NCBI GenBank assembly: GCA_045592225.1
Contig: JAZNUH010000041.1
Coordinates: 1-44,729, forward strand
Direction of reading: 5' to 3'
From: Clostridia bacterium
GTDB lineage: Bacteria; Bacillota; Clostridia; UMGS1883; UMGS1540
DNA length: 44,729 nucleotides
Positions 19,667 to 39,484 of this stretch are shown piece after piece. The notes beneath the pieces are model-generated. The model ran no database searches. It was not told where the DNA came from and was given only the letters and a program-made list of their open reading frames with translations. The position numbers were made by a program, and so were the translations under genes. The stretch's first letter is position 1, and every line of letters starts with the position of its first letter.

Positions 19667-19690
19667 TATCTGCGAAAAGGAGAGATACAT

Positions 19691-20122: not shown

Positions 20123-20126
20123 TACC

Positions 20127-20153: not shown

Positions 20154-20178
20154 CAGGCACATTAAAAGGAGAAAACAT

Positions 20179-20850: not shown

Positions 20851-20856
20851 GAGAGA

Positions 20857-21471: not shown

Positions 21472-21574
21472 AGCCCTGCTTTTTTGTTCATAAATTATTT
21501 ATAATTAGGTAATAAAAAACACATATTGAAGATATAAAATAATAGCGAAAAATAAACGGAGGCGGTTTAAACCT

Positions 21575-23503
21575 ATGAGCAACAAAAAAACAAAGGTTGT
21601 GACTTTTTTTAAGGAATTTAAAAATAAGACTGTCACAGGCTTTAAAAACAAATCACCAAAGAAAAAGCTAATTATAATAACAGCTGCATTACTTGTGGCG
21701 GTGCTTATTGCCTGTATTATTGTTTCGCAGATTTTTTCTGGTAGGCATACGGCTGATCAGGTATACATAGAGAGCAGGGTTACAAGAGGAAATATCGAGG
21801 TGAAAATTGAGGGGACAGGCTCGGTAGAGCCTATTGACCGTTATGATATTATGCCCCTTGTAAGAGGAACCATCCTTGAATCTGTGCCCGAGGAGGGTGA
21901 CGAAGTAAAGGAAGGGGATGTGCTTTATGTAATAGATCATACCGATATGGACACCAATATCGAAAAGACAATGAACTCCTATTCCAAATTGCAGAAAACC
22001 GAAAAGGATTTGAGAGAAAAAATATCAAACCTTACATATTACGCAACCGCATCGGGCGTGTTGTCGGGTTTTTCGCTTAAGGAAGGAGAAACTTTTTCTT
22101 CAAACGGCGGAAAGATAGGGGAGGTTACAGATACCTCGGTTATAATTGCCACCGTTCCCTTTAACAGAACACAGCTTGATAAAATACAGACAGGACAGAC
22201 GGCAACGGTTAATATTGAAAAATATATGCAGTCTGTACAGGGGAGGGTTACCGATAAAAGCTATGTTGCAAAGGCAACAGGAAGCGGTTCGGTGCTTTAT
22301 GATGTAACAATACAGATAGACGGTAAGAACATTGCCGGAATTCCTGAAAACACCAAGGTGACGGCAAGCATTTCAGTTGGCGGAGAAACTCTTATTTCAC
22401 CTGCAGTAGGTACAACCGCTTATCCCGACAGCAAAATTCTTGCAGCCAGGGCGGGAGGCACTGTTGCACAGGTGCTTGTCAAAAACGGACAATGGGTTAC
22501 AAAGGGTCAAAAGCTTGTGGTGTTTGAAAATGACGACCTTGTAACCTCTCTGGAGAATAATCTTCTTGACCAGAAGGATATCAAGGCAACCTTGAAATCG
22601 CAAAACGATGTGCTTGAAGATTATACAATAACTTCTCCTATAAACGGCAAGGTTATAACAAAGAACTATAAAAAAGGTGACAACCTGCAGGACAGCGCCG
22701 GTACAACCATAATGACTGTTGCCGATATGAGTAAAATGAAGTTTTACATATCTGCAGATGAACTGGATATTGCAAAAATAAAAATAGGACAGAGTGTATC
22801 GGTAAGTGCCGATGCTCTTGCCGGAGTTGAGTTTGATGCTGAAGTAACGCAGATTGCAACCGAAGGTGTCAGCAACAACGGTGTAACCACATACCAGGTA
22901 GAGGTTACAATAAATAATCCCGAAGGTCTTATGCCGGGAATGAATGTAACCGGTGAAATTGTTGTAGAGAGCGCAGAAAATGTGCTTATGATACCTGTAT
23001 CAGCGGTAACAGCGCGTGACGGCAGATACTTTGTATTTGTAAAACAGGGAAAAGCCGACCCGACGGCAGTTTCAGCAGCACCTGCACAGGAAGGAGAGGG
23101 CGCGCAGAACAGAGAAATGCCGCCAATGGGTGAAAGACCTGAAGGTGCTCCGACTGAAGGAGAAAGACCCGAAGAAACATCAGAGCCCGGGCAGAGCGCA
23201 ACTCCCACACCATCGGCGCAGCCTGTCGACAGGGGTGAGATAAGTGAAAGAGTTTTAAGACAGCTTGAAGCGGCAAAACCCGATGGAACAGAAATAGCGG
23301 AAATAACTGTTGGTCTTAGTAACGATGAATTTATTGAGGTTACAAGCGGGCTTAGTGAGGGACAGACAGTGGTTATAACCGGGGTAGTATCAGAAACCAA
23401 TGATATGCAGAAAATGATGATGGGCGGAATGCCCGGCGGTGGAATGCCGTCAGGCGGAATGCCCGGTGGTGGCGGCGATGCGCCCGGAGGCGGTACGAGA
23501 TGA
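21575..23503 (+). CDS. efflux periplasmic adaptor (HlyD/MacA-like) with a long Pro/Glu/Gly-rich C-terminal tail
   Basis: An N-terminal TM anchor, then barrel-sandwich/lipoyl-like segments (GDEVKEGDVLY, GQWVTKGQKLV). The gene overlaps the downstream ABC ATPase gene by ATGA. Confidence 0.8.
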   Translation: MSNKKTKVVTFFKEFKNKTVTGFKNKSPKKKLIIITAALLVAVLIACIIVSQIFSGRHTADQVYIESRVTRGNIEVKIEGTGSVEPIDRYDIMPLVRGTILESVPEEGDEVKEGDVLYVIDHTDMDTNIEKTMNSYSKLQKTEKDLREKISNLTYYATASGVLSGFSLKEGETFSSNGGKIGEVTDTSVIIATVPFNRTQLDKIQTGQTATVNIEKYMQSVQGRVTDKSYVAKATGSGSVLYDVTIQIDGKNIAGIPENTKVTASISVGGETLISPAVGTTAYPDSKILAARAGGTVAQVLVKNGQWVTKGQKLVVFENDDLVTSLENNLLDQKDIKATLKSQNDVLEDYTITSPINGKVITKNYKKGDNLQDSAGTTIMTVADMSKMKFYISADELDIAKIKIGQSVSVSADALAGVEFDAEVTQIATEGVSNNGVTTYQVEVTINNPEGLMPGMNVTGEIVVESAENVLMIPVSAVTARDGRYFVFVKQGKADPTAVSAAPAQEGEGAQNREMPPMGERPEGAPTEGERPEETSEPGQSATPTPSAQPVDRGEISERVLRQLEAAKPDGTEIAEITVGLSNDEFIEVTSGLSEGQTVVITGVVSETNDMQKMMMGGMPGGGMPSGGMPGGGGDAPGGGTR

Positions 23504-24195
23504 TAAGAATAAAGGATATGTATAAAATATACAAGATGGGTGATAACGAGGTACACGCGCTGGCAGGAGTTTCAATGCATATAAAGCCCCACGAGTTTGT
23601 GTCTATTATAGGTCCCAGCGGCTCGGGCAAAAGTACACTTATGAATATGATAGGCTGTCTGGATGTTCCTACAAGCGGCACATATTACATAGAGGGTGTG
23701 GAGGTAAGCACATTAAATGAAAGCCAGCTTGCAAGACTTCGCAACGAAAAAATTGGCTTTATATTTCAGGGGTTTAATTTGTTACCCCGCCTCAGTGCCA
23801 TTGAAAATGTGGAGCTACCGCTTATATATATGGGAGTGCCGAGAAGCCGCAGGCGTGAGCTTGCAGAGGAGGCTCTGCGCCGTGTAAGTCTGCTTGAAAG
23901 AATGCACCATAAACCAAAAGAGCTTTCAGGCGGTCAGCAGCAGCGTGTGGCGATAGCCAGGGCGCTTGCAAGCAGTCCGCCGCTGATTTTAGCCGATGAG
24001 CCCACAGGTAATCTTGACTCACAGTCGGGCAGAGAGGTTATGGAAATGCTGCATGAACTGCATAGCGAAGGCAATACCATTGTTCTTATCACTCACGACA
24101 GCGGTGTGGCATCGCAAGCTGAACGCATAATAAGAATTGCAGACGGAAAAATAACTCACGACGGTGAGAACAAAGGCGAGGTGAGATGCGAATGA
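23500..24195 (+). CDS. ABC transporter ATP-binding protein, MacB/LolD type
   Basis: Walker A GPSGSGKST, signature LSGGQQQRVAIARA, Walker B LILADEPT. Confidence 0.9.
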   Translation: MIRIKDMYKIYKMGDNEVHALAGVSMHIKPHEFVSIIGPSGSGKSTLMNMIGCLDVPTSGTYYIEGVEVSTLNESQLARLRNEKIGFIFQGFNLLPRLSAIENVELPLIYMGVPRSRRRELAEEALRRVSLLERMHHKPKELSGGQQQRVAIARALASSPPLILADEPTGNLDSQSGREVMEMLHELHSEGNTIVLITHDSGVASQAERIIRIADGKITHDGENKGEVRCE

Positions 24196-25367
24196 ACCTT
24201 GGTATGGCATTTAGTATGGCTATGAAAAGTGTTCGCGCAAACAAGGGCAGGAGCTTTCTCACCATGCTTGGAATTATAATAGGTGTATGCTCGGTTATTA
24301 TTCTTGTAAGTATTGTAAACGGTGCCACCGCCGACATTAAAAGTCAGGTTGAGAGTATGGGCACAAACCTTATCAACGTAACTGTTATGCCCCGTGGTAC
24401 AACAAGGCGGGTGGAAATGAGCGATATGGAAGAAATGGTGGAAAAGAATGCCGAATATATTGATGCTGTTTCGCCCATTGTGTCAGGACAGGTTACAGTG
24501 AAATACGGAAACTCAAGCATTGTATCTACACTTACAGGAACAAATGAATATTACAAAAGCATTCGTAATACGAGTGTACAAAGCGGAAGATTTATAAGCG
24601 AGCTGGACGTTATTAAAAGGCAAAAGGTTGCAGTTATAGGTATGTATCAGGTGAACGAGCTTTTTGACGGAGTAAGTCCTGTTAATGAAAAAATAAAGCT
24701 TAACGGTGAACTTTATACGGTTATAGGGGTGCTGGAGGAAAAGGCAAACGGTAAGGAAGGGACAGATGATGACAAAATTATGATACCCTACACTGCTGCC
24801 ATGCGACTGGTACGAAATGCAACCATAACAAGCTATGCAGTATCAGCTGCAGACAGTGAAACGGTTGATATGGCAGAAATAATCATAGAAAACTTTTTGT
24901 TTAATATCCTGGAAAACGAGGATGCCTATATGGTGCTGAGCCAGGCTACAATTATAGATGTTATGGACGAAATGCTTGGTATACTGTCCACAATGCTGGG
25001 CGGTATTGCCGGAATATCACTTCTGGTAGGCGGTATAGGAATAATGAATATAATGATTGTTTCTGTTACCGAGCGAACAAGAGAAATAGGTATAAGAAAA
25101 TCAATAGGAGCGCAAAAGCGCAGTATACTAATTCAATTCCTGATAGAATCAATGGTGCTCAGTTGTATGGGCGGAGTCATCGGAATTATAGTGGGTATAT
25201 TTGGTGCGCAGCTTGTGGGAAAGGCACTTGGTATAACAGCGGTTACGTCCTTTGGTGTAATACTCTTATCCTTTGGCTTTTCCGCGGCAGTGGGTGTATT
25301 TTTTGGCTGGTATCCTGCAAACAAGGCGGCAAAGCTTAATCCTATAGAAGCATTAAGACACGAATAA
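24186..25367 (+). CDS. ABC transporter permease, FtsX/MacB type
   Basis: A MacB-like periplasmic domain followed by a C-terminal FtsX 3-TM bundle. ATG 24192 has better RBS spacing than 24186. Confidence 0.85.
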   Translation: MRMNLGMAFSMAMKSVRANKGRSFLTMLGIIIGVCSVIILVSIVNGATADIKSQVESMGTNLINVTVMPRGTTRRVEMSDMEEMVEKNAEYIDAVSPIVSGQVTVKYGNSSIVSTLTGTNEYYKSIRNTSVQSGRFISELDVIKRQKVAVIGMYQVNELFDGVSPVNEKIKLNGELYTVIGVLEEKANGKEGTDDDKIMIPYTAAMRLVRNATITSYAVSAADSETVDMAEIIIENFLFNILENEDAYMVLSQATIIDVMDEMLGILSTMLGGIAGISLLVGGIGIMNIMIVSVTERTREIGIRKSIGAQKRSILIQFLIESMVLSCMGGVIGIIVGIFGAQLVGKALGITAVTSFGVILLSFGFSAAVGVFFGWYPANKAAKLNPIEALRHE

Positions 25368-25390
25368 TAGTGAAAGGAAAGAATGTAATA

Positions 25391-27664
25391 ATGAAAAAGA
25401 CGGCATCAATATTGCTTATAATTCTTTTGCTTACCCAGTCGGTTTCGGCGGCATTTACCGATGTGACGGCTGAAAGCGGTGAATATACGGCGATTGCAAG
25501 CGTAAGTCAGCTTGGAATTATGACAGGCTATGAAGACAACACGTTCCGCAGCGAAGAAAAAGTAACCCGTGCGCAGTTTGCTAAAATTGTAACTGTCGTA
25601 AGCGGTGGTGAGGAAAACGCCGTATTGCGTATGGATGCGGGGCAGTTTGCCGACGTAACCTATAATCACTGGGCAAGCGGATACATAAGTTATGCAGTTG
25701 CAAACGGAATTTTAATGGGTTACGGTGACGGAAGCTTCCGACCCGAGCAGAATATAACCTATGCAGAGGCATTGACGGTTATCCTCCGTGCTATGGGTTA
25801 CAGCGCAGAGGACGTAGGCTATTACTGGCCTGCGGGATACATAGAAAAGGCGTATGCCCTGGGACTTATAAGCGATTATTCGTTTGACCCGTATGCACCC
25901 ATAAGCAGAGGGGAAATAGCCATTTTAATTGACAAGGCTTTATATATGGAAGGCAAGGGCGGAGTAAAGCTTATAACCGCATTTGATATGAAGGAATACG
26001 AGGACGCGGTTATAATAGCAACCAAGAAGACAGATTCATCACTTGCGGGAGATCAGGTAAGCACCTCGGCAGGAGTGTTCAAAAAGGGAAGCCTGACAGA
26101 GGTGGATGAGTATATAGGCATAAAAGCCGATATTGTTGTTGACAAGAACAATAATCTTGTTCAGATTCTGCCTGCCGAACAAACTGTTGAAAGGGCAGTT
26201 ATTGAAGGCGCTGTCGGAAAGGATATAACGGTAAGTGTAAACGGCAGAACAAAAACCATTCAGCTTGATGATAATATGGTGGTATATTACAAGGGAAGCA
26301 AATCCTCTGCCGCACAGCAGAAGGCTAACCTGACCGAAGGAAACGAGCTTTATATGTACAGTACAGGCGGAGAGGTGGATTATATTTTCCTTTATGCCTA
26401 TGACATTATGGGACCCTATACCGTCGCAAGCGGTGGCGCAGAGCTGATAAACTATTTTGGTATTGAGGACAGCAGCAAGGTTTCGGTTATCCGTGATGGG
26501 CTTTCATCAAGTTTTGCGCAGGCGGAAAGGTATGATGTGGCATACTATGCTGCAGGCAGTAACACATTGTATTTATACTGTGACAAGGTAAGCGGTACTT
26601 ATGATGAAGCTTACCCCATGAAGGCAAATGTTACCGAGGTAACAGTATCGGGCAGGACATACGAGCTTGAAGGCAGCCTTGCAAAGAGCAAGCTGGGAGA
26701 GGGAGCCGGTGCCTTTAAAATCGGAGACAGGGTGACATTGCTTTTAGGTCGTGACGGACTTGTTGCTGATGCAGTTGTGCTCGGGGAGGATGACCCTTCA
26801 AATTACGGTGTAATAATAAGCACAAGAATGACAGTTTCGGATGATAATGATACAAAGGGACAAAGCGAATATTACACTACCATACTCAAGGGAGACGGTA
26901 TGGAGGTAGAGCAGAAGAGTGTAAAGGATTATTCTGACTACAAAGGCAGATTTGTAAGCATTGACTATGAAGACGGTAAAATGAAGTTTACAACGGTAAC
27001 CTACACACCTGTTTACGGTGCTCTTGACAAGGCTGCTCCTTCTCTTGGCGGAGTTCAGTTTGCACGAAACTACAAAATAATTGAGCTTGTAAAGCAGGAG
27101 GGTAACAGCACACCCGTGGTACAGTGTGTAGAGCTTTCTGATATAAAGCTTAAATCGCTTACCAAAAATCAGGTAATTCATGCCCAGAAATCAAACGATT
27201 TTGGCGACATAACGGTACTTTATATAAATAATGTAACAAACAGTAACTATCAGTACGGAATACTGACTCACGCCGCAATGTCAGGTATGGGAATGAGTAT
27301 TTCGGGCAGCTATACCGTTATGAAGGATGGTGTGGAAACCGACTACCGAACCTCGGGCGTTGCATACAGTGCAAGCGCAGGTCAGGCTGTGGGAATAGAA
27401 ACAAACGGCGGTGCGCTTACAGGAATTAAGGTTTTGTCTCCGGTTATATCATCATCAAAGGTTGAGGCGGTAAGCGTTGGAAGAATTAAGGTCGACGGTG
27501 AAATATATGAACTGGACGATAATGTGCAGATATTCAAAGAAAAAGACAGACTCAATACATTTACCCAGATATCAATAAATGACCTTGCGGGTATGAAAGA
27601 TGGGTATGTAACACTTTACTCGGATAAACCGGCAGGAATAATAAGGGTAATAAAGGTACAGTAA
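25391..27664 (+). CDS. secreted S-layer-homology (SLH) domain protein
   Basis: Signal peptide MKKTASILLIILLLTQSVSA, then three SLH-like repeats (FTDV..., FADV...GYGDGSFRP). The remainder is unassigned. The start is moved from 25370 to ATG 25391. Confidence 0.75.
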   Translation: MKKTASILLIILLLTQSVSAAFTDVTAESGEYTAIASVSQLGIMTGYEDNTFRSEEKVTRAQFAKIVTVVSGGEENAVLRMDAGQFADVTYNHWASGYISYAVANGILMGYGDGSFRPEQNITYAEALTVILRAMGYSAEDVGYYWPAGYIEKAYALGLISDYSFDPYAPISRGEIAILIDKALYMEGKGGVKLITAFDMKEYEDAVIIATKKTDSSLAGDQVSTSAGVFKKGSLTEVDEYIGIKADIVVDKNNNLVQILPAEQTVERAVIEGAVGKDITVSVNGRTKTIQLDDNMVVYYKGSKSSAAQQKANLTEGNELYMYSTGGEVDYIFLYAYDIMGPYTVASGGAELINYFGIEDSSKVSVIRDGLSSSFAQAERYDVAYYAAGSNTLYLYCDKVSGTYDEAYPMKANVTEVTVSGRTYELEGSLAKSKLGEGAGAFKIGDRVTLLLGRDGLVADAVVLGEDDPSNYGVIISTRMTVSDDNDTKGQSEYYTTILKGDGMEVEQKSVKDYSDYKGRFVSIDYEDGKMKFTTVTYTPVYGALDKAAPSLGGVQFARNYKIIELVKQEGNSTPVVQCVELSDIKLKSLTKNQVIHAQKSNDFGDITVLYINNVTNSNYQYGILTHAAMSGMGMSISGSYTVMKDGVETDYRTSGVAYSASAGQAVGIETNGGALTGIKVLSPVISSSKVEAVSVGRIKVDGEIYELDDNVQIFKEKDRLNTFTQISINDLAGMKDGYVTLYSDKPAGIIRVIKVQ

Positions 27665-27698
27665 AAAAAGCCGCAGAGAAATTTCTCTGCGGTTTTTT
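27664..27698. terminator. bidirectional terminator
   Basis: AAAAAAGCCGCAGAGAAATTTCTCTGCGGTTTTTT. It abuts the stop codon of the spo0A remnant. Confidence 0.8.
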
Positions 27699-27909
27699 AG
27701 ATTGCTGCAAGCTCCAGCCTTAATTTATCTGCTATAAGCGCAATGAATTCAGAGTTTGTAGGTTTACATTTAGAGTTGTTCATAGTATAACCAAAGATAT
27801 TGAACAGCTGCTCCTCGTTACCGCGTATGCAGGCGGTTTCGATTGCATGTCTTATTGCTCGCTCTACGCGGGATGATGCAGTACCGAACATTGATGCCAC
27901 AAGGGGATA
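27697..27909 (-). pseudogene. spo0A: remnant of the spo0A 3' end (last 70 codons plus stop)
   Basis: 205 of 213 nt are identical to 31922-32134. It encodes ...[30 protein letters not shown]...LRLELAAI. There is no receiver domain and no RBS. Confidence 0.85.
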
Positions 27910-28025
27910 TTGAATTTAACAACCGCCTGTGTGATGCATTAAAGGCGCTGGGTGTACAGGTGGTTGACCATTTTATTGTAGCTAATAATGAATACAAAAG
28001 TATGAAAGAGGCAGGTGTTATATAA
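27905..28025 (+). pseudogene. radC: radC 3' fragment (hybrid of the paralogue-1 and paralogue-2 types)
   Basis: 27905-27974 matches 20721-20790 at 69/70 nt. 27975-28025 matches 21421-21471 at 45/51 nt. The gene body is missing. Confidence 0.8.
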
Positions 28026-28155
28026 CATCTGTCTGATTTTATAAAAAATACAACCAATATAGTATTAACACTTTGTTTTTTTAAAATTATAATATGATTA
28101 TAGAAATTATATTGTAAGGCGCATAGCGAACAAAATACAAACAGGTGAAAATACA

Positions 28156-28992
28156 ATGAACTCTATTTACGTTGGAAAGAAAACAAATAATCTGGTAAAC
28201 ATAAGTGCCATTTCAAACAGCAGTTACTGCGTGCTTTTGGTAGGACAGGAGCTGGAGTGCCGCAACAGCGATGTATGGGAAATGGTTTATGTGGACTGGG
28301 GTGAAGCGGAGATTTGCACCGATGAAAGGAGAGTAATACTCGAGCAGGGGGAAACGGTTTTTTTAAAACCAGGCGAATTTCACACTGTGCGGGTATGCGG
28401 AACAACGGTAGCAAATATAATTACCATTTCGTTTGTATGCTTATCAAAGATTATGAACTTTTTTAAAGGAAAAAAGCTTAAGGTAACAGCTGCATTGAGG
28501 AAGAATATTTTTAGTATCATGGAAGAGTATGAAAATATGGAAGAAGAAAAGTACATAGGCGGAAAGCAGCTTATACAGACATACCTTAAGCAGATTATAA
28601 TATTTCTTATACGGGGAGAGCACACTGCGGATGAGGAGATTGTTTTTTTCTCAAAGGAGGATGCCGAAAAGAAACTTGTTTCGCAGATGCAGAAAATGGT
28701 GGAGGATAACATATACTGCCAGATTACTACAGAAAGCATTTGCAACAGGATTGAATATTCAAGAACCTACCTTTCAAAGCTTTTTAAAGAGCATATGGGT
28801 TGCACAATTCTGAAATATATACAAAAAAGAAAGATTGAAGAAGCAAAGACTCTTATACGTAAAGGCGAGGATAATTTTATACAAATTTCGGAGAAACTGT
28901 GCTTTGATAATTCCCACTACTTTTCACAGGTGTTTAAAAGGGTGTCGGGTATGACTCCAAGTGAATACAAAAAAATAAACAAGAGTATATAA
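28156..28992 (+). CDS. AraC-family transcriptional regulator (cupin N-domain plus HTH)
   Basis: The C-terminal AraC HTH includes FDNSHYFSQVFKRVSGMTPSEYKK. Confidence 0.85.
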   Translation: MNSIYVGKKTNNLVNISAISNSSYCVLLVGQELECRNSDVWEMVYVDWGEAEICTDERRVILEQGETVFLKPGEFHTVRVCGTTVANIITISFVCLSKIMNFFKGKKLKVTAALRKNIFSIMEEYENMEEEKYIGGKQLIQTYLKQIIIFLIRGEHTADEEIVFFSKEDAEKKLVSQMQKMVEDNIYCQITTESICNRIEYSRTYLSKLFKEHMGCTILKYIQKRKIEEAKTLIRKGEDNFIQISEKLCFDNSHYFSQVFKRVSGMTPSEYKKINKSI

Positions 28993-29010
28993 TATAAAAA
29001 AGTAAGAGGG

Positions 29011-29288
29011 TAAGCAGTTGCGTTAGTATCTGAACCCGCCTAAACCAAGTAAAATAGCCGTTTTTCTTTGTTGTCGGTCTCAAAATACGCCGGTATTACT
29101 TCGACCTTCCGCCTTGAAAAAGCGACAATTTTATCTTGTTTTAGGTTCTATGAATTTTCGGTGCAGTGTTTTTGCGTCAATGCGAGGCAAAAACACAGCT
29201 AATGCTGACGCATTTGCGAGTATTTTAACGATGCAGTGGCGTAAAAACACGCACCCAAAACGGGTTCGGATACTAACGCAACTGCTTA
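29011..29288. repeat. 278-nt element E1 closed by a 28-bp inverted repeat (family shared with 39206-39484)
   Basis: TAAGCAGTTGCGTTAGTATCTGAACCCG pairs with CGGGTTCGGATACTAACGCAACTGCTTA, with one T/G position. The internal blocks CGCCTAAA, GTTTTAGGTTCT, AGGCAAAAACACAG and ATTTTAACGATG sit at the same offsets as in E2. Confidence 0.6.
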
Positions 29289-29323
29289 TGCAAAATGAAT
29301 TTTATTTTGCATACCCTCTTGTA

Positions 29324-30925
29324 TTAAATTCGCTCGAAATAGGGCAATACATCAATGGGGGCGGGGAGTGTAACGGTTTGCCCGCCTTTATAAAGTTCAC
29401 CATTAACATACTTCCACATACAGTTTTTCGGAAGCCTTATGCTACGAACATAAGAGCCTTTTGTTATAACCGGTGCAACAAGGTATTTTTCGCCAAGCAT
29501 AAAGCAATCGTTTGTATTTTCGTACCCCTCATCGGGAAACTCGTATGCCATATGCCGTATAATGGGTTGACCGTCGGCACGGGTGCGGTTTACAAGCTCT
29601 AAAATATAGGGGGAAAACTTTTTGTGCAGCTGTGCCATATTGCGGCAAATATCGGTTTGCTCACGGCTGAGATATTCCCAGGGCAGCATTGAAAACTGCA
29701 TCATTGGGAACAGGGTGGACAACTGACACATTCTTATAAACAGCTCGCTGTCAAATTCTGCTTTGCCGTTTTTATATGCGTGAACAAAGGTCCATTCTCC
29801 GCCGCCTATCATATCGGGGCAGATAAATGGGCTGCCGATAAGCCCCTGCATAAGGCAGTAGGGGATAATGGTGTTTATACCCTCATTCGTCCATGAATGG
29901 TTTCTGTCGCGCAGGCGCTGGATACCGCACTTGCCGCCGCCTTTATATGTATCTTTAAACTCGTTATGCAAATATTGCCTGCCAAATTCGTTCCATGCAA
30001 TATTGCGTTCATAGTGCGGGTGTATTTCGTTTATATGCCCGTTTATGCACATATAATCCGAGTAATGGTATATATGGCCGCCGTCAAATTTAAAGCCGTC
30101 TATACCGTATTCGGATATGAGGGTATCAAGCTGGGTTTTAAGAAAGTCCCTGTCGGCTTTTTGTGTAAAATCTAAAATGGCACACACGCCGTTCCACCAG
30201 CGTATAAGAGCAACCTCGCCGTTATCAAGGCGAAGATACAGCTTTTCGTCGTTTTGTTCCTGCATACCAAACTCTGCCGCCATGCGAAGGCTTTTAACAT
30301 ATTTTTCGCCCGAGCAGGTAACAAACGGGCAAATCCACACCAGAACGGTAAAGCCCATTTTATGCAGCTTATCTGTCATTGCTTTTGGGTCGGGGAATTT
30401 GACAGGGTCGAACTCCCAGGTGCCGTAGGGCTTGTGCCAGCCCTCATCTATGATTAAAACGCCGGGTTCAAAGCCGTTATCTTTTATGCTTTGGGCATAG
30501 GCGAGAACTGAATCCTGCGTTTGGTTGTAGGTACAGTGCATCCAAGTATTATACTGGGGGGTTATAAAACAATCATCGGGTAGGGGTTTACCGTCAAAGG
30601 GGAAATGCTGCTTTGAAGCCGCGAGATACGCATCCTTTAGGGTGTTGCCTGCGTGGTATAACTTAATGCTCATATCCCCCGTTACATAAATTTTACCGTT
30701 TTTAAACTCAAGCGCGAAAGCCTGCTCGCTCCATATATATCTACCCTTGCTTGAAAGCAGAAAGGGCATACCCTGGTTAAGACATTCTATGGAATTTGTA
30801 CCGGTAAGGTCCATACTTATATTGCTTTCGGCCGAGTAGGGCGCCTTGTCACCAAAGCAGATGCCACCACCCCACCAGTATTCATTTTCTAAAATATCAA
30901 ACACGTATTTCATAAGTTCCTCCAT
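29324..30925 (-). CDS. glycoside hydrolase, GH31-like (clan GH-D), specificity unknown
   Basis: LIIDEGW and GIDGFKFDGG resemble the GH31 catalytic-region motifs (compare YicI G.DCFKTDFGE). There is no signal peptide. It is divergent from an AraC gene. Confidence 0.65.
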   Translation of the reverse strand: MEELMKYVFDILENEYWWGGGICFGDKAPYSAESNISMDLTGTNSIECLNQGMPFLLSSKGRYIWSEQAFALEFKNGKIYVTGDMSIKLYHAGNTLKDAYLAASKQHFPFDGKPLPDDCFITPQYNTWMHCTYNQTQDSVLAYAQSIKDNGFEPGVLIIDEGWHKPYGTWEFDPVKFPDPKAMTDKLHKMGFTVLVWICPFVTCSGEKYVKSLRMAAEFGMQEQNDEKLYLRLDNGEVALIRWWNGVCAILDFTQKADRDFLKTQLDTLISEYGIDGFKFDGGHIYHYSDYMCINGHINEIHPHYERNIAWNEFGRQYLHNEFKDTYKGGGKCGIQRLRDRNHSWTNEGINTIIPYCLMQGLIGSPFICPDMIGGGEWTFVHAYKNGKAEFDSELFIRMCQLSTLFPMMQFSMLPWEYLSREQTDICRNMAQLHKKFSPYILELVNRTRADGQPIIRHMAYEFPDEGYENTNDCFMLGEKYLVAPVITKGSYVRSIRLPKNCMWKYVNGELYKGGQTVTLPAPIDVLPYFERI

Positions 30926-31053
30926 TGTTATCTGCTGTAAAAAACACGTTTATTGCTATTGCTTGTACGCACAAGATATATTATAATTATAAAAAAGGCG
31001 TGTGTAAATACAAAATCAGGTGGTTTTTTTATAAAAAAGGGCGTGAGGTAAGT

Positions 31054-31851
31054 ATGAGTCATCCTGTATACATAAACAATTTTTTAAGATATTACAGAAA
31101 CCGCCGCGATTGCGGGTATTTTTTCGGCGGGCACACTCATCCCGCATGGGAGGTTAATGTGGTAACAAGTGGTGCTATGGAAATAACATATGATAACACC
31201 ATTTCGATTGTAAGGAAAAATATGCTGATGTTAATTGAGAGTGATGTTTTTCATAGAAACAGGGTGCTCTCTCCCGAGGGTGCTGATATGTATGTGTATC
31301 AGTTTGTGTCGGACAATATGCCCCGCGGCAAGGCAGGGGTGTATGAACTCAGTGACAATAATTTTGCGCTTATAAAGCTGATTGAAGAAGAAGCGGAAAA
31401 AAATATAACCGAAAAAATAGAACGCTCGGTAAAAGTAGAAAAATTCAGCTATCAGGCGGAAAAACTACTGGAAGTTTTATTGACAAGGCTTGTAAGTGAC
31501 GAAAATACAGTAGGGTATGAAACAAACCCTGATGAGGAAATATACGGAAAAGCTGTAACCTATATGAAAGAAAATATTGCACGCAACCTTTGTATAGACG
31601 AAATTGCAAGAGAGTGCTGCGTAAGTAACACAAGGCTTAAAAATGTTTTTAACAGGTATACCGGCAACGGCGTTATAGCCCATTTTTCGAATATGAAAAT
31701 AAATGAGGCAAAAAAGCTTTTGGACAAGGGAATGCCGGTAGGGGAGGTAAGTGAGCAGCTGGGCTATTCATCGCAGGGGTATATGTCGCTGTGCTTTAAA
31801 AGGGCTACGGGAATATCGCCGCTTAAGTATAAAAAAGAAAAAGGGATGTAA
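31054..31851 (+). CDS. AraC-family transcriptional regulator
   Basis: A cupin-like N-domain and the HTH GYSSQGYMSLCFKRATGISPLKYKK. The start is ATG 31054, preceded by GTGAGG. Confidence 0.85.
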   Translation: MSHPVYINNFLRYYRNRRDCGYFFGGHTHPAWEVNVVTSGAMEITYDNTISIVRKNMLMLIESDVFHRNRVLSPEGADMYVYQFVSDNMPRGKAGVYELSDNNFALIKLIEEEAEKNITEKIERSVKVEKFSYQAEKLLEVLLTRLVSDENTVGYETNPDEEIYGKAVTYMKENIARNLCIDEIARECCVSNTRLKNVFNRYTGNGVIAHFSNMKINEAKKLLDKGMPVGEVSEQLGYSSQGYMSLCFKRATGISPLKYKKEKGM

Positions 31852-31905
31852 AAAAAAGTTCATACCACACGGGACGGGAATGTTTTGTGGTTATGAACTT
31901 TTTTA
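31851..31905. terminator. bidirectional terminator between the AraC gene and spo0A
   Basis: An A tract, the stem AGTTCATACCACA/TGTGGTTATGAACT (one bulge), then T6. Confidence 0.7.
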
Positions 31906-31921
31906 CATCCCCCACCCGTTA

Positions 31922-32134
31922 TTAGATTGCTGCAAGCTCCAGCCTTAATTTATCTGCTATAAGCGCAATAAATTCAGAGTTTGTAGGTTTACATTTGGAG
32001 TTGTTCATAGTATAACCGAAGATATTGAACAGCTGCTCCTCGTTGCCGCGTATGCAGGCGGTTTCGATTGCATGTCTTATTGATCTCTCCACGCGGGATG
32101 ATGCAGTACCGAACTTTGATGCCACAAGGGGATA
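31922..32134. repeat. direct-repeat partner of 27697-27909 (inside the intact spo0A)
   Basis: 8 mismatches over 213 nt, counted by eye. Six are synonymous and two are non-synonymous. Confidence 0.85.
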
Positions 32135-32716
32135 AAGCTGTTTTGTAACTGCATTTATAAGCCCGGGATTTTCAATGGATGAGATAATTGCTTCTCTTAC
32201 ATAATTGTAACCCTTTATGTTGGCGGGTACGCCAAGTGTAAGAAGCATATTTGTTGTGGCTACCTCCAAAGTATAACGGTGTGAAGTTTCGTTGACCTTT
32301 GAAGGGGTGTTTGGAAGATTTATCTGAAGAGTTCTGCTGAGTGAGGCAACCAGTTCAATTCTATCCTTTATAACCGACATTTCGGTGGGCTTTACCATAT
32401 AGTAGTCGGCACCGTGTTGCAGGCACATTCCCAGAATGTTTTCATTTGAAAAGGCTGTAATCATAATAACGTGGGGACGGTTGTCGGGCGAAATATCGCG
32501 CATACCCATTAAAACGGCTATTCCGTCAATGCCGGGGAGCAAGATATCAAGCGCTACAACATCAGGGCTTGTCTTATGTATCAGGTCAAGAGCTTCTTTA
32601 CCGTTGGAGGATGTACCAACAACCGATATATTTCCCTGCTTTTCGAGATATTCCTTTAAATCCTGAGTAAATTCTGCATTACTGTCTGCAATAAAAACCT
32701 TTATGTTTTGTTCCAT
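31922..32716 (-). CDS. spo0A: sporulation master response regulator Spo0A
   Basis: A receiver domain (VFIADSN...DVVALDILLPGIDG) plus the Spo0A-specific C-domain SRVERSIRHAIE...[18 protein letters not shown]. Confidence 0.95.
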   Translation of the reverse strand: MEQNIKVFIADSNAEFTQDLKEYLEKQGNISVVGTSSNGKEALDLIHKTSPDVVALDILLPGIDGIAVLMGMRDISPDNRPHVIMITAFSNENILGMCLQHGADYYMVKPTEMSVIKDRIELVASLSRTLQINLPNTPSKVNETSHRYTLEVATTNMLLTLGVPANIKGYNYVREAIISSIENPGLINAVTKQLYPLVASKFGTASSRVERSIRHAIETACIRGNEEQLFNIFGYTMNNSKCKPTNSEFIALIADKLRLELAAI

Positions 32717-32845
32717 AACTGTTCCTCCTTAATAAAATTTATTTTTCGAACATTATTTTACAATAAATTCCAATTAATTGCAAGAGATTTTTAGAAATTT
32801 TTTCCAATTATTTTTATATTACTCCCAAAAAGTGTTTTTACAACA

Positions 32846-32878
32846 TAAAAACAGAGGCAGAATTCTGCCTCTGTTTTA
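32846..32878 (-). terminator. intrinsic terminator after the GH127 gene
   Basis: CAGAGGCAG-AATT-CTGCCTCTG flanked by A4 and T4. Confidence 0.75.
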
Positions 32879-32926
32879 TAAATTTTACCTCACGGAAAAA
32901 TAACTGCTGTCATTTGAGATGGCAAA

Positions 32927-34708
32927 TTATTTTACCATTGTCCATACAAGCATATCTGTAGCTTCGCGGTTTGCAAAAGCAAAATATGGTATGAGTCGTG
33001 AGGCGAATGGAGTGCGCTCGTTACTTTTAACAGAGTAAAGCTTAGTACTGTCGGGGCGACGCTGGGCGTCAATATAAATTACCGGTGCAGGGATACCGTC
33101 TTCTTTAGCAATACGGATATTGCCATTTTCCAGTAAAGTAATATCGCGAAGGTTTTCGCCATTATCTATTCCCTCCATACAATAAACAATAGGACCACGC
33201 TGTACTGCGTATCTTCCCGAATTATCCTGCGCGTAAGGGTTTGCCTCGATAAAGTGGACAGCCATGGGAAGGTCAATGACAATACTGTCACCGTCGGTAA
33301 GTTTAAAGTGTGCAAATCCCTTTTCTGTTTCGCCTTTGTATTCTACGCACCATTCGGGTATTCTTACGCACAGTGTTACAGGTTCACCCTTGTAATCAAA
33401 CTTTATTTTACCGCTGTAGGGATAATCGGTGGTCTGTGTCAAAACGGCATCCTTACCGTCTACTTCAAATTTTGTTTCACTCTCTGCAAATTGGTTGCAG
33501 TAGATTGCAGAGCCGTCAACTGTGTACATATAGCGGGGTACAGATGCAAGCATCCTTACAACATTGGGCGGGCAACAGGAACAGTCAAATACCTTTACTC
33601 TCTCACATATAGGCTGGAACGTGCTTCTCTGATACTTTTTGCGGTCAATTTCCAACGGATTTGTATAGAAGAATTTATCACCGCTTAATGACACGCCTGA
33701 AATAAATCCGTTGTAGTATATGCGTTCTATCACATCGGCATAGCGTGAATTAACCTCTGTTTCCTGCATAGCTCCCGCAAACATTGCAAGGGCAATGGCA
33801 GCGCAGGTTTCGTTATAGGTGTCGCTGCTGGGCAGGTCATAATCATAAGAAAATCTTTCCAACACGTGCTCTGCACCTATTCCGCCGGTAATGCTCATTT
33901 TTTTGTTTGTAATGCTGTCAAATAATCTGTCACAGGCAGCCTTTAATGTTTCATCATTATCCTGTTTTGCAAGCATAGCCATGGCAGTATAAAGATAGCA
34001 GGCTCTTACAGCATGCCCCACAGGCTCGGAGGCTTCGCGTACAGGGAGATTTGACTGAATTTGTATGTGCTTTTCTTCTTGTTCATTATTACCTCTTTGG
34101 TCAATGAAAAATCTCGCAAGCTGCAGGTGCTTTTCATTTCCGAGATATTCATACAGCTTGAGCAAGGCAAGCTCTATTTCCTCGTGCCCGGGTGTTACAA
34201 AGTTGGCACTTTTTTCTTCAATAAAGGTGCGGTATATCATATCGGTATATTTAAGGAGGCAATTTAAAAATTTATCCTTACCTGTTGCTTTATGATAAGC
34301 GATTGCCGCCTCAATAGCATGGCCCGCACAGTAAAGCTCGTGCCAGTCGCGGTTTGTAAATATTTTTGAAGGTTCAACTGTCAGAAAGTATGAATTGAAA
34401 TATCCGTCCTCACGCTGATTTTTTGCAATATCATCTATCATTTCATCAACCAGGACTTCAAGCTCGGGCATGGGGGATACCTGGATAAGATATGCAACCC
34501 CTTCCATCCACTTTACAACATCAGAATCCCAGTATATATGCGGCTTACCCGGCATTCCTTCGCGCCAGTTACATTTTAAGGCATCAAATCTGCTGGTTTC
34601 TTTAAATCGGTCATACACGGCTTTTGCGGTAACGTTTCTGTCTAATTTTTCATAAAACTCCCAAAATCCGCCTTTTATTTTTGTGTTTTCAAAATTAAGG
34701 TTCTTCAT
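32927..34708 (-). CDS. glycoside hydrolase family 127 (beta-L-arabinofuranosidase-like, DUF1680)
   Basis: GHAVRACYLY, and the Cys-cluster region FDCSCCPPNVVR that is typical of GH127. The start is ATG 34708. Confidence 0.85.
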   Translation of the reverse strand: MKNLNFENTKIKGGFWEFYEKLDRNVTAKAVYDRFKETSRFDALKCNWREGMPGKPHIYWDSDVVKWMEGVAYLIQVSPMPELEVLVDEMIDDIAKNQREDGYFNSYFLTVEPSKIFTNRDWHELYCAGHAIEAAIAYHKATGKDKFLNCLLKYTDMIYRTFIEEKSANFVTPGHEEIELALLKLYEYLGNEKHLQLARFFIDQRGNNEQEEKHIQIQSNLPVREASEPVGHAVRACYLYTAMAMLAKQDNDETLKAACDRLFDSITNKKMSITGGIGAEHVLERFSYDYDLPSSDTYNETCAAIALAMFAGAMQETEVNSRYADVIERIYYNGFISGVSLSGDKFFYTNPLEIDRKKYQRSTFQPICERVKVFDCSCCPPNVVRMLASVPRYMYTVDGSAIYCNQFAESETKFEVDGKDAVLTQTTDYPYSGKIKFDYKGEPVTLCVRIPEWCVEYKGETEKGFAHFKLTDGDSIVIDLPMAVHFIEANPYAQDNSGRYAVQRGPIVYCMEGIDNGENLRDITLLENGNIRIAKEDGIPAPVIYIDAQRRPDSTKLYSVKSNERTPFASRLIPYFAFANREATDMLVWTMVK

Positions 34709-34829
34709 AACAGATGTTCCTTTCGCAAAGGGTAATTGACACAAAACAGTCTTCGTGTTAAAATTATAATAACCAATATAAAGATTAAATGCAACCTCAA
34801 AATACACATATTAGGAGCAAAAATACGAC

Positions 34830-35591
34830 ATGTTTGAAAATGTAAAATACATAAGTTGCGGAAACTTTATTTCAGACGGGGAGTGGATACACCCTGACCG
34901 ATGTATAGATTCTTACGAAATTATATATGTTACCAGAGGCAGTATATATATAAATGAAAATGGTACAGACTATGTAATAGGAAAACAGGAATTTTTAATT
35001 CTGGAGCCGGGTGTCCGTCATTACGGGTATAAGCACAGCTCGAATGTTGAATTTATGTGGCTGCATTGGTCGGGCAAGGTAAACACATCACAGCAGGTTA
35101 AGCATTCTAAAGTTATAAATAACTATGAATTTATGCTTTTTTTCAAACAACTGTTACACAACCGCCTGAAAAAAAGTCTTGATGAAAGCTTTGATTATTT
35201 GACAAGACTTGTTCTGGGTGAAGTTTATTCGGGTAATACCGGCTTTGAAACAAATACCCTTGCAGAAAATGTTGCCTTGTGGATAAGTGCAAATAACAGT
35301 AAGGCTCTTTCTGCCAAAAAGGTTTCAGACCATTTCGGATATAATGCAGATTACCTGTGCAGAGTGTTCAGCAGGTGCTATAACAAGAGCATAAAACAAT
35401 ATATTGATGAAGAAAGAATTAAATTTATTAAAAAGCTTATGCTCAACGAAAAGCTGACATTGAGAGAAATTGCCAAAACAGCGGGCTTTGAAGAATATAA
35501 GTATTTCCTGAAATTTTTTAAATACCACGAGGGCTTTACCCCGACAGAGTTTAAAAAACTGTATGCCAATGTATATATAAATACGCGTTAA
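34830..35591 (+). CDS. AraC-family transcriptional regulator
   Basis: A cupin-like N-domain and the HTH FEEYKYFLKFFKYHEGFTPTEFKK. It is divergent from the GH127 gene. Confidence 0.85.
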   Translation: MFENVKYISCGNFISDGEWIHPDRCIDSYEIIYVTRGSIYINENGTDYVIGKQEFLILEPGVRHYGYKHSSNVEFMWLHWSGKVNTSQQVKHSKVINNYEFMLFFKQLLHNRLKKSLDESFDYLTRLVLGEVYSGNTGFETNTLAENVALWISANNSKALSAKKVSDHFGYNADYLCRVFSRCYNKSIKQYIDEERIKFIKKLMLNEKLTLREIAKTAGFEEYKYFLKFFKYHEGFTPTEFKKLYANVYINTR

Positions 35592-35745
35592 TTATCAAAA
35601 TGCCTGTTTGTAAATTATTACCTTATAGATCATATATTTGACAAGTAATTTTAAACATGCTACAATTCATTTGGTTGTATGGAGAGGTTAAAACTGAATT
35701 GACTATAAAACACATTATAAGTAAAAAGGAGAATATGAATACATT

Positions 35746-38028
35746 ATGAAATTTTCGAAGGGTTTACTTATTATTCTATTAATATTTTTAAGTCTATTAT
35801 ATTGCATCACCATATATGCATATTCGCCTAGAATTGATGAGTCTACTGATTCTCCAGCATCATCTAATTTATATTATATACATACAAGTTATGGCGGTTT
35901 AAATGAATGCATACCGATTTCGGGGTCCTCTGTCCTGCCTAATTGTGTAGGATATGCATGGGGACGAGCATATGAGATGTTAGGATCGCGTCCAAACCTA
36001 TGCAAACAAAACGCAGAATTATGGTTTGATTACAATAAAAATAATGGTTTCTACGAATATGGTACAATACCAGCACTAGGAGCAATCGCTGTTTGGAGTG
36101 ACGGTGTAATAGGAAATGCAAATGATGGTGCAGGTCACGTTGCAGTTGTAGAAGAAATAAACGGAGACACCGTCATTACTTCTGAATCTGCATATGGAGG
36201 CAAACGTTTTTTTACTACAACAAGAAATACTACTCACACAAGATTTAGTGAAAGTGAGTATTATGATGCATATGATTCAAATGAAAACAAAATTAAATGT
36301 GGTCCTCGAAAATTTTTGGGATTTATATATGTTTGTGGTAAAGTAACATCGTCTGTGCCGTCTGCCCCAAGCAATGTCAAAACCGAAGTATCAGGGTCTA
36401 AAGTGACTGTCACATGGTCAATAGCAGAAAATGCATCAAGTTATGATGTTTATATTGTTGAATCTCCGTGGGGGTGGGAAAATATAATCTCGAGTACAAG
36501 CACCACTGCATTGCAGCATACTTTTACTTTAAACAAAGGTGGAAGCTTTTCAGCTTTTGTAATTGCTAAAAACGGCCGTATTCAAAGTTCCCAAAGCAAA
36601 TGGTCCCCTTTTAGTATCAATTCAACAGTTCCGGAGAAACCAATCATAAATGGCACATTCCCAAGATATTCTACCGTTGACAAAAGTATAAAAATTTCAT
36701 GGGATGAGGTTGCCAACACAGAACAATATGAATACTTTTTATGCAGATATCCTGTAGGATATGCTTATTCGTCTAATGACAGACATGGTACAACCAAGAA
36801 AAATTCTATCACTTTCTCCAATTTACCTGCTGGAGAATATACTTTTTTCCTACACGCAGTAAATGGCTTTGGCAGAAGTCATAAAAGTTCATATAAAACT
36901 ATAATTATAGATGATATTGATTATGTTCCAATAAACACCACTATATGGAACAAACATATTTATGTATTATATGATAATGTTTTAGAATGGAAGTATGCTG
37001 AGAAATTATCAAAAAAAATAGGTGGACACCTCGTAACAATTGAGTCGAGTCAAGAAAATCAAGTAGTTAAAGAGCTGATTCAAAAAGGCAACCATGCTTA
37101 TTATTGGATTGGTATGCGTTCAAAAGATCCTTATAATAACGATAATACTTTCTATTGGAGTAATCAAGAGACAGTATCATATACAAATTGGGCGAACAAC
37201 GAACCGAGTAGTTCTGGGGAAAAAAGAAGCAAAGAGGGATTTGCACATATGTACAAAAATTCTGGAAAATGGAATGATGTTGCAAATGTATGCTCCTATA
37301 ACATTGGATTTGTTGTAGAAATAGACATGGATAACATTAAACCATCTACAGAAATACATATTGGAAACAAACGATATATAAAATATGATTATTCTCTCAC
37401 TTGGACAGAAGCAAATAGCTTTTGCAATGCAATAGGTGGACAATTAGCAGTAATTAATACCGAAGAAGAATACCAGGCTCTTTGCGAATTGTTAGATTCT
37501 ACCGATGATACAGAAAAAACTTGGTTTTTTGTGGGAGCAAAAAGAGATGACAATAAGCCATTTTATTGGATAGATGGAAGTAACATATCTAATGTTATAA
37601 CCGAAGAACGGCGAGCAAGCTATGGTTTGAATTACGAATCTACTTACAACTATATGATGATGTATAAATCGGATAAAAAATTTGCTAATCTTGCAAATTA
37701 CTACAAAGTTGATGATGACATGAATAATTTGGGATTCATATGTGAAATTCAAAAACCTTACACTCAAAGTGAGGTGTTAAAAAATGGTAATAATTATATT
37801 GTAAATACTACGGCATACAACATTAATCAAGGAGATATTATAGTTTCTGCATTCCGTAATGAAAGGCTCATTGGTATAAAGAAGCAAAAATCAAATCAAT
37901 TTCCATTAACTTTTACTTTCGAAGGAAATATTGATACAATAAAAGTAATGACGTGGAAAAAATTAGGGTCTATTTCTCCTATCACAAAATGTGAAACAAT
38001 AACTTTTGAACAATTTATTACCCGATAG
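35746..38028 (+). CDS. secreted CHAP-domain protein with two Fn3-like and two C-type-lectin-like domains
   Basis: A signal/TM segment, then CHAP motifs NCVGYAWGRAYE and GHVAVVEEINGDTVITSES. Two roughly 90-aa Fn3-like repeats follow (PSAPSNV..., VPEKPII...). There are two CTLD signatures (W..AE......GGHLV/LAVI..EE......WIG......F.W......Y.NW...EP...........WND..C...GF.CEI). Confidence 0.75.
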   Translation: MKFSKGLLIILLIFLSLLYCITIYAYSPRIDESTDSPASSNLYYIHTSYGGLNECIPISGSSVLPNCVGYAWGRAYEMLGSRPNLCKQNAELWFDYNKNNGFYEYGTIPALGAIAVWSDGVIGNANDGAGHVAVVEEINGDTVITSESAYGGKRFFTTTRNTTHTRFSESEYYDAYDSNENKIKCGPRKFLGFIYVCGKVTSSVPSAPSNVKTEVSGSKVTVTWSIAENASSYDVYIVESPWGWENIISSTSTTALQHTFTLNKGGSFSAFVIAKNGRIQSSQSKWSPFSINSTVPEKPIINGTFPRYSTVDKSIKISWDEVANTEQYEYFLCRYPVGYAYSSNDRHGTTKKNSITFSNLPAGEYTFFLHAVNGFGRSHKSSYKTIIIDDIDYVPINTTIWNKHIYVLYDNVLEWKYAEKLSKKIGGHLVTIESSQENQVVKELIQKGNHAYYWIGMRSKDPYNNDNTFYWSNQETVSYTNWANNEPSSSGEKRSKEGFAHMYKNSGKWNDVANVCSYNIGFVVEIDMDNIKPSTEIHIGNKRYIKYDYSLTWTEANSFCNAIGGQLAVINTEEEYQALCELLDSTDDTEKTWFFVGAKRDDNKPFYWIDGSNISNVITEERRASYGLNYESTYNYMMMYKSDKKFANLANYYKVDDDMNNLGFICEIQKPYTQSEVLKNGNNYIVNTTAYNINQGDIIVSAFRNERLIGIKKQKSNQFPLTFTFEGNIDTIKVMTWKKLGSISPITKCETITFEQFITR

Positions 38029-38086
38029 AAAAAGTGTAAATGGAGACGTGCCTGATTTTGCACACTATTTGTACAGTTTGGGGACA

Positions 38087-38120
38087 GGGCAGTTTTTGTT
38101 ATTAAAACTGCCCTCCTTGT
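38087..38120. terminator. bidirectional terminator between the CHAP-lectin gene and spoIVB
   Basis: GGGCAGTTTT-TGTTATT-AAAACTGCCC: a 10-bp stem with T-rich flanks. Confidence 0.7.
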
Positions 38121-38121
38121 T

Positions 38122-39205: not shown

Positions 39206-39484
39206 ATAGCCTTAACAACCAATACTTAAGACGCCTAAAATGGCGAATTTTAGGAATATTTCGGCTTGTCGTCCTTGAAAGGCGATTAGCCTTCCTGCGT
39301 CCTCCGCACCAAACTCTCCTCAAAAATTTATCCGTTTTAGGTCCTGTGGAGTTTTAAAATAATAAATTTTGTTTCAATCAAGGCAAAAACGCAGGGAATA
39401 TGGTAATATTTCCGAGGATTTTAACGATGAGTGAGGCGAAATTTACATTTCAAAACCGCCTTTAGTGTTGGTGGTTAAGGCTAT
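39206..39484. repeat. 279-nt element E2, closed by a 21-bp inverted repeat (same family as E1)
   Basis: ATAGCCTTAACAACCAATACT pairs with AGTGTTGGTGGTTAAGGCTAT (one mismatch, one T/G position). The blocks CGCCTAAA, GTTTTAGGTCCT, AGGCAAAAACGCAG and ATTTTAACGATG lie at offsets 26, 128, 175 and 212, against 26, 127, 174 and 211 in E1. Confidence 0.55.

Follow-up and report, generated by a model that had tools for sequence, protein, structure and literature searches.

The window analysed here is the whole of contig JAZNUH010000041.1 from a Clostridia bacterium (assembly GCA_045592225.1; 44,729 nucleotides), and the locus under study is the interval between a tandem pair of radC paralogs (radC1 and radC2) and the convergent gene spo0A. 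In this interval the 3' end of spo0A is present twice in direct orientation: the left copy (L) is an orphan, and the right copy (R) belongs to an intact spo0A. Between the two copies stands a block of sugar-utilisation genes (block B), and an unrelated block of exporter genes and a gene for an SLH-domain protein (block A) separates radC2 from L. Genes were assigned with Pfam and NCBIfam, and the coordinates of all features are collected in the table below.

The longest repeat of the window, as returned by a repeat search, is direct, 216 nt long and 96% identical (27694-27909 and 31919-32134). Base-by-base comparison of 27697-27909 with 31922-32134 gave 8 mismatches over 213 nt and zero gaps, the same count as in an earlier reading of this DNA made from the letters only (hereafter the sequence-only reading); in the spo0A frame, six of these differences are synonymous and two are replacements (K201M and S212A). 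Identity ends at the stop codon on one side and past the pentanucleotide GGATA (27905-27909 and 32130-32134) on the other, and the final 48 nt of spo0A are the same in L and R. The gene that ends in R encodes a protein which passes the equivalog threshold of TIGR02875 (290 bits for a cut-off of 200) and which holds both the receiver and the Spo0A-specific C-terminal DNA-binding domain. L adjoins a strong bidirectional hairpin (stem 27671-27692) with folding energies of -18 and -22 kcal/mol and z-scores of -6 and -8; the live spo0A presently terminates at another bidirectional terminator, as judged by folding. The roles given earlier to the two copies, a true gene end on the right and an orphan abutting a terminator on the left, are thus borne out by the Pfam and NCBIfam matches, the terminator scan and the folds, and L is a non-functional, decaying stub.

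At its inner end, L runs on as radC sequence of the opposite coding strand. This switch (joint J1) falls within GGATA, which is common to spo0A (32130-32134) and radC1 (20721-20725), and 12 of 15 positions match when the flanks are included. The alignment therefore upholds the 5-bp microhomology that had been read at this point, and a junction microhomology of at least 5 nt would arise by chance with P ~0.005. The order at the joint is spo0A (breakpoint y) followed by radC1 (breakpoint x), with 5 bp of identity; x corresponds to codons E181-D182-I183 of radC1, at the Asp of the JAMM motif HxHx7SxxD.

The radC sequence past J1 had been described as the 3' end of a radC gene imported as foreign DNA. 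Its radC identity stands, but according to the alignments the 121-nt stub is a hybrid of radC1 and radC2 rather than a plain radC 3' end, and a foreign origin of the whole is contradicted by its first 70 nt, which match the resident radC1, 7.2 kb upstream, at all positions but one. A change from radC1-type to radC2-type sequence follows at a second joint (J2), and from there the stub (27965-28025) differs from the 3' end of radC2 (21411-21471) by 6 mismatches over 61 nt, keeping the outgroup state at five of the six sites. The stub has no HxH of the JAMM motif; gene callers still predict a 58-60-aa «RadC» open reading frame (ORF) in it, as they call a 67-aa «Spo0A_C» ORF at L. Both are pseudogene stubs, and annotations that list such short ORFs at this locus should be read with this warning in mind.

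Coordinates of the features of the radC-spo0A interval in the window (strand given as + or -; a dot stands for a feature without strand)
Feature	Position	Strand	Evidence or remark
radC1, resident, 223 aa	20179..20850	+	Pfam RadC 8e-28; NCBIfam RadC family
radC2, resident, 204 aa	20857..21471	+	Pfam RadC 6e-32; final 61 nt (21411-21471) related to the radC2-type stub end as paralog or allele
Block A, cargo of copy 1	21575..27664	+	HlyD-type membrane-fusion protein, ABC ATPase, MacB/FtsX permease, 757-aa SLH-domain protein anchored at the surface (Pfam)
Bidirectional terminator hairpin, between SLH gene and ancestral spo0A end	27664..27698	.	terminator scan, fold
Left copy L, orphan spo0A 3' end (codons 195-264 and stop)	27697..27909	-	abuts hairpin
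Joint J1	27905..27909	.	GGATA microhomology, spo0A breakpoint y (codons 195-196) to radC1 breakpoint x
radC1-derived part of stub	27905..27974	+	69/70 identical to 20721-20790, one silent mismatch
Joint J2, 10 nt	27965..27974	.	TGACCATTTT, common to radC1 and radC2; switch from radC1-type to radC2-type, in frame
radC2-type 3' end of stub, stop codon included	27975..28025	+	6 differences from resident radC2, silent or near-silent
Block B, cargo of copy 2	28026..31921	.	araC1, 272-bp element, GH31, araC2, bidirectional terminator (Pfam, NCBIfam, fold)
araC1	28156-28992	+	
272-bp non-coding element with terminal inverted repeats (E1 of the sequence-only reading)	29014-29285	.	strain-specific
GH31 glycosidase	29324-30925	-	
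araC2	~31054-31851	+	
Bidirectional terminator of block B	~31853-31913	.	
Right copy R, 3' end of functional spo0A (last 70 codons and stop)	31922..32134	-	
Intact spo0A, 264 aa	31922..32716	-	Pfam Response_reg PF00072 and Spo0A_C PF08769; NCBIfam TIGR02875

Only a handful of related contigs were present in the collections, and the species itself was represented by two strains. The second strain, which derives from another sample, is represented by a 16.9-kb JGI contig (L083; its full reading is L173) that is 97.8-98.1% identical to positions 21630-35618 of the window. Its gene order is that of the window, namely radC2, exporter genes, SLH gene, spo0A stub, radC stub, araC1, GH31, araC2, spo0A, GH127 and AraC, and both J1 and J2 are identical in it, with single-nucleotide polymorphisms (SNPs) and indels around the joints. 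Another JGI contig (L084) spans the stretch from AraC through spo0A into GH31 and gives independent support for the adjacency of block B and spo0A. The structure of repeats and stubs is real and inherited. Divergence between the two strains amounts to ~1.0% in block B and the stubs versus 2.3-2.5% in the flanks, a difference that is compatible with a more recent common ancestor of the insert or, alternatively, with DNA brought into the flanks by later recombination.

The ancestral order was recovered from a sister species, whose Spo0A is 82% identical and which is represented by Logan/ENA contigs L081, L082 and L085-L088 and by one protein of an NCBI metagenome-assembled genome. In this species TatD-MetRS-mscL-radC1-radC2 is convergent with spo0A-transglutaminase-GH127-AraC, so that radC2 is the immediate convergent neighbour of spo0A. 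Collinear, decayed pieces of the SLH gene are preserved in the 550-nt spacer between these two genes in L085-L088; they match positions 26366-26490, 27199-27338 and 27590-27664 of the window (best piece 93% over 60 nt, E = 1e-19). Because these remnants are collinear, block A, or at least its SLH gene, can be placed between radC2 and spo0A in the common ancestor; and because they lie beside the sister-species spo0A, L stands where spo0A ancestrally ended, as had been supposed earlier from its contact with the terminator. No remnant of block B was found in the sister-species spacer. Three to five SLH pieces are present at 9687-10003 of L085 (and also in L086-L088), where they are annotated as a 38-aa ORF, and in L081 and L082, of the same species cluster, they are wholly lost; block A was therefore deleted stepwise in this lineage. 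The neighbourhood of a deeper outgroup (L174, Spo0A 59% identical) is unrelated.

The eight differences between L and R had been taken to mean that the two copies were alleles from different lineages which diverged while both were under purifying selection. For L and R of the window alone, the ratio of non-synonymous to synonymous substitution rates (dN/dS) is indeed 0.09, with P = 0.003 if both copies are neutral and P = 0.037 if one is neutral and one constrained. The allele reading is not backed by a table of all four copies (L and R of the window, L and R of L173) with two outgroup sequences, in which five of the eight window differences fall on the functional copy and three on the orphan. 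Three changes are private to the functional copy of the window, every one silent; two are common to both functional copies (AGA TCA, versus the outgroup-like CGA GCA in L); and three are private to the window orphan (K to M and two silent changes). Each of the six possible pairs of copies is 6-8 differences apart, a star-like pattern. Because the copies are about equidistant, the split between L and R is about as old as the split between the strains, and L and R were at most ~2 nt apart at their origin.

Changes on the orphan lineages comprise K to M in the window and, in L173, R to H and a 2-nt frameshift deletion, together with three silent changes; those on the functional lineages are five silent changes and I to V. 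This pattern fits decay of the stubs. Silent change on a functional copy is expected under any history. As an oddity, four of the six private changes of the functional copies match the outgroup, possibly as a result of gene conversion between L and R.

At the radC2-type end of the stub, four silent differences over 51 nt are fixed with respect to the resident radC2 of both strains; elsewhere in the neutral stubs, shared derived changes number no more than one over 334 nt. A foreign origin of this end was considered and was weakened by the resident radC2 3' ends of the two strains, which differ from each other at 5 of 60 positions, as much as from the stub. As a separate observation, the radC2 3' end and the spacer next to it (21400-21650) form a peak of between-strain divergence, with 22 mismatches per 250 nt versus ~2-10 elsewhere, and the stub copy of the radC2-end sequence is the same in both strains over 200 nt; this contrast points to DNA imported by recombination where block A begins to border on radC2.

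Taken as a whole, these data make it fairly probable that two alternative haplotypes of one chromosomal slot, located between the convergent neighbours radC1-radC2 and spo0A, were merged by one microhomology joint and a homologous exchange. The A-type haplotype would have had the order radC1-radC2-A-spo0A. The B-type haplotype would have had the order radC(hybrid)-B-spo0A, with A lost as in the sister species, B placed between the stop codons, and the radC pair collapsed into, or converted to, the hybrid. A single illegitimate joint at GGATA would then have connected codon 195/196 of spo0A (y) to codons 181-183 of radC1 (x; nt 543 of radC1), and the product would be a head-to-tail repeat whose unit extends from x to y. 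In copy 1 (20721-27909) the remainder of radC1 would be followed by radC2, block A and the dead spo0A stub; in copy 2 (27905-32134) the dead radC stub would be followed by block B and the terminal part of the live spo0A. The merger could have come about when an x-to-y fragment of the B-type, looped out or circularised, integrated by one homologous crossover within the 3' end of spo0A, or through unequal exchange in a transient merodiploid following DNA uptake.

Because y is followed by x, and x lies ancestrally upstream of y, the joint has the topology of a tandem duplication or of a single crossover; and because radC1-radC2 adjoin spo0A in the sister species, it connects two resident neighbours head to tail and does not mark an imported radC. 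The two copies are homologous only at their ends (213 nt of spo0A and 121 nt of radC), not over their full length as a plain tandem duplication requires. Beyond these ends no similarity was found between blocks A and B, and no remnant of block A was detected within copy 2, which supports a merger. Two haplotypes are the most economical source because the copy interiors, that is the cargoes, are unrelated. The four fixed silent differences of the radC2-type stub end also favour a merger weakly.

Several points weigh against a merger of haplotypes. The radC2-end point is not a strong one, the resident radC2 3' end being a local hotspot of divergence between the strains, and substitution polarity is weak with only two strains and an outgroup that is ~20% diverged. 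To account for the hybrid stub, a further event has to be assumed, which may have been a 630-bp deletion or a gene conversion involving the two radC paralogs. Neither a B-type genome (radC-B-spo0A) nor an island-free A-type genome of the species was seen in any collection searched, so that the parental haplotypes, the B-type included, are what we infer, together with the molecular route; and the possible routes (circle, unequal exchange or an event like homology-facilitated illegitimate recombination) look alike at the level of sequence.

The same joint topology and microhomology would be left by an in-situ tandem duplication in an A-type genome, in which a 7.2-kb unit, from nt 543 of radC1 to codon 195 of spo0A, was doubled by sister-chromosome exchange at GGATA, and copy 2 then lost radC2 and A and gained B. 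Joints of tandem segmental duplications in bacteria do form by illegitimate sister-chromosome exchange at 0-5 bp of identity (PMC9997567), as in the cat amplicons of Acinetobacter baylyi (Reams and Neidle, as summarised in PMC9997567). The present locus shares with these amplicons a head-to-tail novel joint from downstream to upstream with 0-5 bp of identity, the absence of a recombinase, and repeats that can recombine later. The near-identity of L to R and of the radC1 stub to their parents at the origin (distances of 6-8; 69 of 70) is also what such a duplication would give. The copies here, unlike those of a tandem duplication, share their ends only and have unrelated cassettes as interiors, and because of this a plain duplication is insufficient without a second haplotype or a later replacement of the cargo. 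More events are thus called for (the duplication, a fusion of the radC1 remnant with radC2, and a precise replacement of A by B), copy 2 has no trace of A, and the excess of fixed silent differences at the radC2-type stub end (4 in 51 nt versus at most 1 in 334 nt) is not expected; this course is possible but unlikely. The single-crossover side of the merger has its own precedent: a single crossover with a circular molecule duplicates the homologous segment, and duplications of the lacZ end of 109-950 bp have been observed (PMC3240628). As in such Campbell-type integration, direct repeats of the homologous segment flank the insert, the 213 bp are within the reported range and the target is intact on one side. 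Unlike it, no plasmid or element backbone is present here, and the circle would be a looped-out chromosomal fragment closed at GGATA, a molecule that was not seen; J1, as the closure joint, would be the one mark of such a circle expected in the product.

In the sequence-only reading, the locus was explained by homology-facilitated illegitimate recombination (HFIR; de Vries and Wackernagel 2002; Prudhomme et al. 2002; Meier and Wackernagel 2003, as cited in PMC5361080), in which incoming foreign DNA with a radC fragment, block B and a spo0A 3' allele of its own would have used spo0A as its anchor and formed an illegitimate joint at GGATA. One homologous side, one joint of short microhomology (3-10 bp in HFIR) and the addition of genes without a recombinase agree with this, and so do the low dN/dS between L and R (P = 0.037 for one neutral and one constrained copy) and the differences between the radC2-type stub end and the resident radC2. 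What does not agree is that canonical HFIR joins an insertion to a deletion of recipient DNA, as found by experiment, and leaves the anchor single, duplication of an anchor arising from circular single crossovers (PMC3240628); here the anchor is duplicated, nothing is missing with respect to the ancestral order and what was supposed to be the foreign end comes from a neighbouring resident gene. In the stub, the radC1 part resembles the resident gene, five of the eight L/R differences are on the functional copy, the copies are equidistant across the two strains, no divergent spo0A tract lies beside B (as the shared last 48 nt indicate), and the base composition of block B does not set it apart from the rest of the window. 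Canonical HFIR is therefore improbable; of the sequence-only reading, the description of the structure is correct and the mechanistic label partly so. If a site-specific integrative element had once inserted at the 3' end of spo0A, supplying a replacement for it, its remnant could explain why direct repeats of a gene end, resembling attL and attR, flank an insert next to an intact gene. No integrase or recombinase gene was found by Pfam and NCBIfam between the repeats or in or beside the island, as the sequence-only reading had also noted, and only AraC, GH31, AraC and the 272-bp non-coding inverted-repeat element lie between the repeats. In addition, the inner end of the repeat is the chromosomal neighbour radC1 and not element DNA, the cargo consists of ordinary sugar-utilisation genes, and a search for GH31 homologues revealed no other genome in which block B stands at spo0A together with an integrase; such an element is very improbable. 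As for an assembly chimera or collapsed strain variants, the window looks metagenome-derived and repeats can mislead assemblers, but this explanation, which had been named earlier as one that would refute the reading, is barely conceivable because the same J1 and J2 are found, with SNPs and indels around them, in an independently assembled and ~2% diverged contig from another sample; a 5-bp overlap is moreover incapable of causing a k-mer misjoin.

The persistence of a displaced gene end recalls the orphaned 3'-end arrays of Rhs, contact-dependent inhibition (CDI) and type VI secretion system (T6SS) effector loci (PMC5361080), where the displaced 3' end stays downstream of a new module and the conserved 5' part is still used. 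Those loci encode polymorphic toxins in which the new 3' end specifies a different toxin; the two spo0A 3' ends, in contrast, differ little in the protein that they encode, and the cargo has no relation to spo0A.

The direct repeats could make block B deletable by homologous recombination. Such an event would remove 4,225 bp and would leave Spo0A altered by K201M, S212A or both, according to where the crossover fell; in the strain of L173, crossovers proximal to the 2-nt deletion would frameshift spo0A. No deletion product was seen. It is doubtful, though conceivable, that the locus documents a rare natural event in which a single microhomology joint stacked two cassettes that are alternatives for one slot, in which case the AraC-GH31-AraC cassette would be RecA-excisable and its loss would rewrite the C-terminal DNA-binding end of Spo0A, thereby coupling loss of the cassette to Spo0A function. 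The scar is of an already known kind (microhomology-mediated duplication or single-crossover stacking) and implies no new mechanism or system. It is a clean natural example of cassette gain without a recombinase, for which a short-microhomology joint and ordinary homology suffice, and it has left stubs of both flanking genes as a datable scar. The radC-spo0A spacer thereby appears as a variable slot in an uncultured gut Clostridia lineage, in which the ABC/SLH block was kept here and deleted in sister lineages, and a sugar-utilisation block was added beside it here.

For recognition of the different states in sequence data, J1 was expressed as a diagnostic k-mer (GATGCCACAAGGGGATATTGAATTTAACAACC); the intact A-type state is given by the SLH terminator followed by spo0A reading through CCACAAGGGGATAAAGCTGTTTTG, and the B-type state by the radC1 upstream sequence CACAGGAGGATATTGAATTT running into GACCATTTTATTGTAGCTAATAATG and then araC1. 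A scan for Spo0A in the GTDB representative genomes found nothing closer than 52% identity. In metagenome contigs, a degenerate pattern of the radC2 3' end gave 0 matches and the Spo0A protein scan gave at most 49% identity. A search with the 70-aa C-terminus of Spo0A yielded no further partial contigs of the species. The comparison of spo0A neighbourhoods proposed in the sequence-only reading thus delivered the ancestral order, but neither an island-free genome nor a donor with the order radC-araC-GH31-araC-spo0A: in the search for GH31 homologues the sole close one was the same-species contig, and around the next (72% and 64%) the gene context is unrelated, with neither radC nor spo0A. Elsewhere, block B is without close relatives.

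Short «Spo0A_C-only» proteins from elsewhere, which resembled parallel cases, were rejected. The one examined (L176) is the second of two tandem spo0A paralogs split by a scaffold gap, and the others start ~47 nt from a contig end. L176 is an unrelated gut Clostridia contig which carries two tandem spo0A-like genes at 8594-10261, the second being 76% identical in its C-terminal part, and some of the short database proteins of this type can therefore be ascribed to a scaffold-gap split of a tandem paralog.

Protein identity with the sister species was compared along the locus. Across 16269-21517 of the window, MetRS and MscL are 97-98% identical to those of L085 and RadC1 and RadC2 81-83%; on the other side of spo0A, GH127 is 76% and AraC3 53% identical. 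The value of 82% for Spo0A is unusually low beside its housekeeping neighbours. The gene immediately upstream of spo0A is spoIVB in ~100 relatives of greater distance; in this lineage the two genes are separated by AraC-GH127 and a variable block (32927-39147), to which the sister species adds a transglutaminase-like gene, and carbohydrate-utilisation cassettes have accumulated on both flanks of spo0A. The stretch from araC3 to spoIVB (35619-38132) encodes a 760-aa protein with CHAP and C-type-lectin domains and a very low GC content at third codon positions (0.24). The same place in L173 (266-2527) is occupied by an unrelated block of 2.3 kb with an HTH_3 gene, a gene for a 398-aa protein and DUF4760. 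The araC3-spoIVB interval is a second strain-variable slot, only 3 kb from the first.

Within block B, a 59-nt inverted repeat with 76% match is formed by 28037-28095, upstream of araC1, and 30978-31036, upstream of GH31. Each copy holds near-consensus -35 and -10 boxes, and the similarity is probably that of a shared AraC-type operator and promoter. The 272-bp element, which is not present in L173, has 25-nt terminal inverted repeats (GCAGTTGCGTTAGTATCYGAACCCG) and sits within the terminator hairpin of araC1 and GH31. A second element of ~272 bp, at ~39210-39480, has other inverted ends of 26 nt and 75-79% internal similarity to the first, and together they look like a small family resembling miniature inverted-repeat transposable elements. 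Rfam gave zero matches for either element and no RNA family in the region as a whole; its only match was a T-box leader (RF00230, 104 bits) at 6847-7104, upstream of an ORF at 7168-8712.

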